From Escherichia coli (GTDB lineage Bacteria; Pseudomonadota; Gammaproteobacteria; Enterobacterales; Enterobacteriaceae), in the NCBI RefSeq assembly GCF_045037415.1, contig NZ_CP173438.1: DNA of 64,000 bases. One strand, 5' to 3'. The position numbers were made by a program, and so were the translations under genes. The notes under the pieces were generated by a model that saw only the letters and a program-made list of their open reading frames with translations, was not told where the DNA came from and made no database searches. Shown here one piece after another: positions 47,660 to 47,700 of this stretch. Position 1 is the first letter of the stretch. Every line of letters starts with the position of its first letter.

Positions 47660-47700
47660 CCAGAGAAATGGGGATGAGGCTTCGCCCCTTCAAGGGGAAA
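47660..47700 (-). promoter_or_regulatory. groESL sigma32 heat-shock promoter
   Basis: Minus strand reads CCCCTTGAAGGGGCGAAGCCTCATCCCCATTTC: -35 CTTGAA and -10 CCCCATTT, matching the sigma32 consensus. Confidence 0.8.

Follow-up and report, generated by a model that had tools for sequence, protein, structure and literature searches.

The known sigma-32 heat-shock promoter of the groS-groL operon in a 64-kb stretch of an Escherichia coli chromosome

The groS promoter site described here lies on the minus strand of an E. coli chromosome, within a stretch of 64 kb that was analysed as a whole and is called the window below. Downstream of the site are the two chaperonin genes groS and groL; upstream of it, an open reading frame for an amino-acid permease (yjeH) starts at 47860 on the plus strand and runs divergently. 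An 801-nt query across the region found matches in 5,425 of 5,426 complete E. coli genomes, in which the genes are annotated as groS, groL and yjeH. The features of the locus are as follows.

45602..47248, minus strand: groL, the operon's second gene (GroEL, 548 aa); Pfam Cpn60_TCP1, E 4.2e-73; groL in annotations
47292..47585, minus strand: groS (GroES, 97 aa); Pfam Cpn10, E 3.6e-30; groS in E. coli annotations
47583..47609, minus strand: ribosome-binding region GGACTTTCTCAAAGGAGAGTTATCAATG; Shine-Dalgarno core AGGAG, 47598-47594 (RBS AAGGAG); ATG at 47585
47629..47653, minus strand: 5' leader stem-loop GCCGGG-N13-UCCGGC in the minimum-energy fold, beginning 5 nt after the predicted start
47657..47658, minus strand: predicted transcription start, C 47658 or A 47657, a conserved CA; leader of about 72 nt
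47665..47673, minus strand: -10 element CCCCATTTC, with the core CCATTT preceded by an 'extended -10' CC
47674..47688, minus strand: spacer of 15 nt, GGGGCGAAGCCTCAT
47689..47697, minus strand: -35 element with the upstream C-run, CCCC-TTGAA; CTTGAA at 47694-47689, hexamer TTGAAG at 47693-47688
47698..47713, minus strand: A/T tract AATTTTTTTTCTTTTT (AATTTTTTTT-C-TTTTT), UP-element-like; conserved part at about -57 to -48 in the K-12 register

The first-pass annotation of this DNA had placed a sigma-32 promoter upstream of groES, on the minus strand at 47660-47700, and the placement held. The 33-mer CCCCTTGAAGGGGCGAAGCCTCATCCCCATTTC, which spans both promoter elements, has a single exact copy in the window (47665..47697, minus strand), 79 nt 5' of the groS start codon (47585) and ahead of the Cpn10 and Cpn60 reading frames. 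Dinucleotide-preserving shuffles of the window contained zero matches to the 33-mer with up to 3 mismatches allowed. A looser pattern, CTTGAA-N12-16-CCCCAT, also occurred once in the window, against 0.02 occurrences expected per window.

In papers that cite Nonaka 2006 and Koo 2009, the E. coli sigma-32 consensus is CTTGAA (-35 to -30) or TTGAAA for the -35 element and CCCCATWT/CCCCATNT for the -10 element, the upstream CC of the latter serving as an 'extended -10'. The -10 octamer CCCCATTT at 47673-47666 is in full agreement with CCCCATNT and CCCCATWT. At the -35 element, CTTGAA matches at 6/6 positions and TTGAAG at 5/6 positions of TTGAAA, the base after TTGAA being G where the consensus has A. 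The gap from CTTGAA to CCCCAT is 15 nt, against 14 in most E. coli sigma-32 promoters, and lies within the sigma-32 criterion of about 14 +/- 1 nt. The earlier claim that both elements fit the heat-shock consensus was thus borne out, alignment giving no mismatch in CTTGAA or CCCCATWT and the 15-nt spacing being the only refinement.

We built a sigma-32 weight matrix from nine sites in the MG1655 upstream regions of classical heat-shock genes, namely dnaK (P1, P2), clpP, lon, htpG, clpB, grpE, ibpA and hslV, leaving groE out. The htpX upstream region of MG1655 had no site with at least 9 of the 11 motif bases. The groE site scored 22.4 bits, comparable with the training sites (20.6-25.1 bits), and was the top score on both strands of the 64 kb, 6.5 bits above the runner-up at 15.9 bits; the check with a sigma-32 matrix that had been proposed for this promoter therefore came out in its favour. 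Among 100 windows randomised with a first-order Markov model, the best score averaged 15.5 bits and reached a maximum of 20.4 bits. The promoters of dnaK P1, htpG, lon, grpE, hslV, clpB, ibpA and clpP have the architecture (C)CC-TTGAA, N14-15, CCCCATNT in common with groE. The groE spacer of 15 nt is like that of htpG and clpP, and the other seven training sites (dnaK P1, lon, grpE, hslV, clpB, ibpA and also dnaK P2) have 14 nt between TTGAA and CCCCAT.

Conservation was examined in a scan with one genome per species, which yielded 80 groES loci from Enterobacterales, Orbales, Pasteurellales and Alteromonadales including Shewanella. The motif test looked for the 11 bases of TTGAA and CCCCAT, with a spacer of 13-17 nt, within 300 nt 5' of groES. 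A match at 10 or more of these bases was seen in 90% of the 80 regions (79 other gamma-proteobacterial species and the window), compared with 0.9% of shuffles, 3.8% of opposite strands and 0% of 300-nt coding stretches. In the 76 sites anchored on the motif, the CCC-TTGAA columns were 89-100% conserved, and the -10 columns stood at C98 C100 C94 C88 A100 T82 n T84 (in %); such anchored values are inflated by the selection of sites, a bias that the shuffle control addresses. The sequence of the spacer carried almost no information across the 76 species, its leading G's excepted, and its length was nearly fixed, at 14 nt in 32 orthologues and 15 nt in 43 (75/76 either). The distance from the -10 element to the ATG was 79-87 nt in most Enterobacterales and is 82 nt in the window.

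Two further conserved stretches were absent from the search pattern. An A-tract followed by a T-tract, 12-21 nt 5' of TTGAA, showed 61-93% identity over the 76 groES promoters. The optimised distal subsite of an UP element consists of an A-tract and then a T-tract centred near -53 (PMC3326320), and the groE tract agrees with this description in position and in its A-then-T composition; the alpha subunit's C-terminal domain probably contacts it. An UP element may also, or instead, have A/T-rich sequence near -43. Downstream, a CA at a distance of 15-16 nt from the initial C of CCCCAT was 76-78% identical in the 76 species. Its register is that of the dnaKp1 +1, and on this basis transcription is predicted to start near 47658/47657. 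Start sites of E. coli sigma-32 promoters are expected 6-8 nt past the -10 element.

Between the -35 element and the ATG, leader included, the window is identical to the groSL promoter of K-12 (MG1655), with the same CTTGAA, 15-nt spacer, CCCCATTTC and flanking yjeH and groS-groL. The differences are three substitutions more than 70 nt 5' of the -35 element and the C-run 5' of TTGAA (47694-47697, minus strand), which has four C's (C4) in the window and five (C5) in K-12. The core 39-mer from CTTGAA to +1 was found exactly in 3,721 E. coli genomes. An 80-mer with the K-12 C5 form was present in 3,629 of approximately 5,400 E. coli genomes, and the window C4 80-mer was exact in 20. A single G-to-T change in the spacer at 47680 (minus strand), which turns GCGAAGCC into GCGAATCC, occurs in roughly one in three E. 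coli genomes. All sampled strains, and E. albertii as well, had unchanged -35 and -10 blocks, and the variants sampled within E. coli were confined to the spacer or the C-run.

The closest assemblies also have the C4 form; one of them, A1.S1.18, shares 99.99% identity with the window over 50 kb. C4 therefore looks like a lineage variant of the C-run, not a one-off error. Its effect on the promoter, if any, would be to bring the A/T tract 1 bp nearer to the -35 element. An origin of C4 from loss of mismatch repair or from homopolymer sequencing errors was considered and rejected, mutL (a 616-aa ORF) and nnr being intact in the window. In A1.S1.18, mutL is annotated as two CDSs and nnr is frameshifted; the corresponding ORFs of the window, 19596-21446 and 23236-24804 (both minus strand), are intact, and BLAST gave 2 mismatches and 3 indels between the two in 50 kb. 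Because of this, the A1.S1.18 frameshifts are probably errors of assembly or else mutations private to that isolate. We also observed that E. coli strain 503829 (NZ_CP025869.1) carries an IS1A directly upstream of the groS promoter (853-1550 of the retrieved locus), starting just past the A/T tract, and lacks the genes between cadA and groS, yjeH included. Laboratory IS insertions upstream of groE reportedly raise groE expression, and the IS1A of strain 503829 resembles these.

The predicted leader has a hairpin near its 5' end. When the first 40 nt were folded separately for each species, the mean z was -2.1 over the 76 species and 84% fell below -1, the z values being relative to mononucleotide shuffles and the species not being independent of each other. 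The hairpin starts about 5 nt past the transcription start, and its arm sequences vary between genera. We read this as a conserved 5' stem-loop in the groSL leader that likely, by analogy, shields the mRNA from 5'-end-dependent decay. The folding signal is local: the whole leader was not unusually structured (z -0.43), RNAalifold returned no consensus leader structure for 31 Enterobacterales, and an explicit count of pairs in two candidate hairpins gave 73% of cells paired versus 71% in shuffles, barely above the controls. A possible hairpin at the Shine-Dalgarno sequence showed no covariation; covariation cannot test it, because GACTTTCTCAAAGGAGAG is near-invariant. This ribosome-binding stretch (47592-47609, minus strand) is near-invariant in 31 Enterobacterales genera and in this respect exceeds both the promoter spacer and the remaining leader; the ribosome-binding site of groSL is strong and invariant.

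Other types of leader element were considered as well. An RNA thermometer (ROSE, FourU and similar) or another Rfam cis-regulatory leader was rejected, as nothing in the region matched Rfam at the gathering score and permissive settings gave only chance snoRNA matches (E at least 2). The groESL operons of Gram-positive and many other bacteria are controlled through CIRCE and HrcA. Like them, the present locus has an inverted repeat between the promoter and groES (47653-47629); unlike them, it has no CIRCE sequence, since a search of the window for the operator TTAGCACTC-N9-GAGTGCTAA gave no match even at 3 mismatches. Since the arms of the repeat vary between genera, an RNA stem-loop fits better than a protein operator.

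Consensus matches do not in general prove function, and a resemblance to the sigma-32 consensus could arise by chance without any promoter activity. The probability of this is negligible. By chance, the two-block pattern would be expected 0.02 times per window, the matrix score of the groE site lies above all 100 random windows, and across 79 other species the motif keeps its spacing to the ATG, so that conservation and controls effectively refute this explanation. The sequence is, moreover, that of the K-12 groE upstream region, which is in standard experimental use as a sigma-32 reporter (pQF50K-groE, groE-lacZ). Wang and deHaseth are said to have devoted a mutational study to the determinants of this promoter in 2003. 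In supplementary file 3 of Cho et al. 2014, the sigma-32 ChIP-chip region SigH_423 extends over 4368049-4369261. With a width of 1.2 kb, this region supports the sigma-32 assignment without pinpointing the promoter. We take the offset from NC_000913.2 to NC_000913.3 to be about 1,977 bp, which places SigH_423 over the yjeH-groS intergenic region. That its coordinates are already those of NC_000913.3, which would leave the groS promoter without a sigma-32 signal, is implausible. Regions for RNA polymerase, sigma-70 (SigD_1684) and sigma-S (SigS_923) are listed along with SigH_423 (Cho et al. 2014); the sigma-70 and sigma-S regions overlap it, and because of these two overlaps sigma-32 is perhaps not the only sigma factor used. 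The region may then also, or even mainly, be a sigma-70 or sigma-S promoter for basal groESL expression, acting from a shared site or from a separate start nearby, an alternative that has a real but minor chance of being correct. Cells lacking rpoH still express some groE at low temperature, and a groE transcript that depends on sigma-70 has reportedly been described. Against this alternative, a consensus scan of 47500-47950 detected no sigma-70 promoter at the standard threshold, a relaxed sigma-70 scan gave a best match of 8/12 (TTTTCA-17-CAGAAT at 47739..47711), and conservation falls on sigma-32-type blocks, not on TTGACA/TATAAT.

Another proposal adds a layer to sigma-32 control. The -35 element is at the centre of an inverted repeat, CCCC-TTGAA-GGGG (47685-47697, minus strand), which could be a functional second element, either an operator for a dimeric protein or a feature of DNA structure. 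The arms flanking the -35 element in the 76 groES promoters formed a mean contiguous stem of 2.59, versus 2.00 +/- 0.09 when arms were permuted among species (0/1,000 permutations reached 2.59), a null that ignores shared ancestry and so overstates the significance. In some Enterobacterales the arms reach 8-10 bp, with 10/10 in one genome, and their sequences differ among genera (CTTAGCCC/GGGCTAAG in Budvicia, CTCCC/GGGAG in Yersinia). The lengths of the C-run and the G-run were correlated (Spearman 0.45). The CCCC/GGGG dyad was seen only in groES promoters: none of the nine other E. coli sigma-32 promoter sites has it, and in these TTGAA is followed by A or T, in contrast to the G of groE. 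On the other side, 21 of the 76 species have no complementary arm pair at all, the bulk of the signal comes from C-run and G-run composition inside one family, the geometry is unlike that of a terminator, and we know of no candidate protein that binds the dyad. A functional second element of this kind is therefore improbable, and it is a shade less probable still that the dyad is a selected groES-specific cis-element that would tune chaperonin expression independently of sigma-32 levels. If it were one, the rare C5-to-C4 contraction would slightly alter it. The dyad is a weak lead, and together with the UP-like tract, the 5' stem-loop and the homopolymer variant it belongs among small leads, not discoveries.

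The site is thus almost certainly the heat-shock promoter from which sigma-32 (RpoH) drives the E. coli groS-groL operon, the dependence on sigma-32 being taken from the literature; this promoter is already known. In the mechanism that we propose for it, RNA polymerase carrying sigma-32 would read CTTGAA with region 4 of the sigma factor and CCCCATTT with its regions 2 and 3, probably assisted by contacts of the alpha subunit C-terminal domain with the upstream A/T tract. Initiation at about 47658/47657 would yield a leader of approximately 72 nt that carries the 5' stem-loop, with a presumably stabilising role, and the strong ribosome-binding site. Heat or unfolded protein would raise the amount of sigma-32 and, through it, of GroES and GroEL.

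The groE promoter matters here as a positive control only: a near-consensus promoter for an alternative sigma factor could be read from raw sequence in the right place and on the right strand. The first-pass annotation had drawn from it that regulatory elements are readable in this window, which is correct for the very strong groE promoter but does not extend to weaker ones. The mutL-miaA-hfq region has two documented sigma-32 promoters, miaA P2(hs), with a leader of 270 nt, and hfq P1(hs). At the expected position of miaA P2(hs), about 19881-19913 on the minus strand and some 270 nt 5' of the miaA ATG, the best matrix score was -4.7 bits. The second-best matrix site of the window, at 15.9 bits no better than random expectation, lies inside miaA and upstream of hfq (19464-19496, minus strand) and may be hfq P1(hs). 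Consensus reading thus has a limit, as weaker documented sigma-32 promoters in the same window are not recognisable by it.

Several minor observations concern other parts of the window. A weak sigma-32-like site of 9.5 bits, TTGAA-N14-CACAATATA, lies upstream of fxsA (49676-49707, minus strand). A second sigma-32 ChIP-chip region, SigH_422, falls in the fxsA/aspA area if its coordinates are those of NC_000913.2. The stretch from 55646 to 64000 is a genomic island: after a tRNA gene (which the closest assembly annotates as tRNA-Phe) come a tyrosine-type integrase, an ORF of 3,516 bp whose annotation is an AAA domain-containing protein, a phosphoethanolamine transferase and an outer-membrane protein. 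This island is presumably absent at that position in K-12. Finally, a guanidine-II (mini-ykkC) riboswitch, a known element, is present upstream of sugE/gdx (41729-41775, minus strand), with a score of 49.3 bits against a gathering score of 32.
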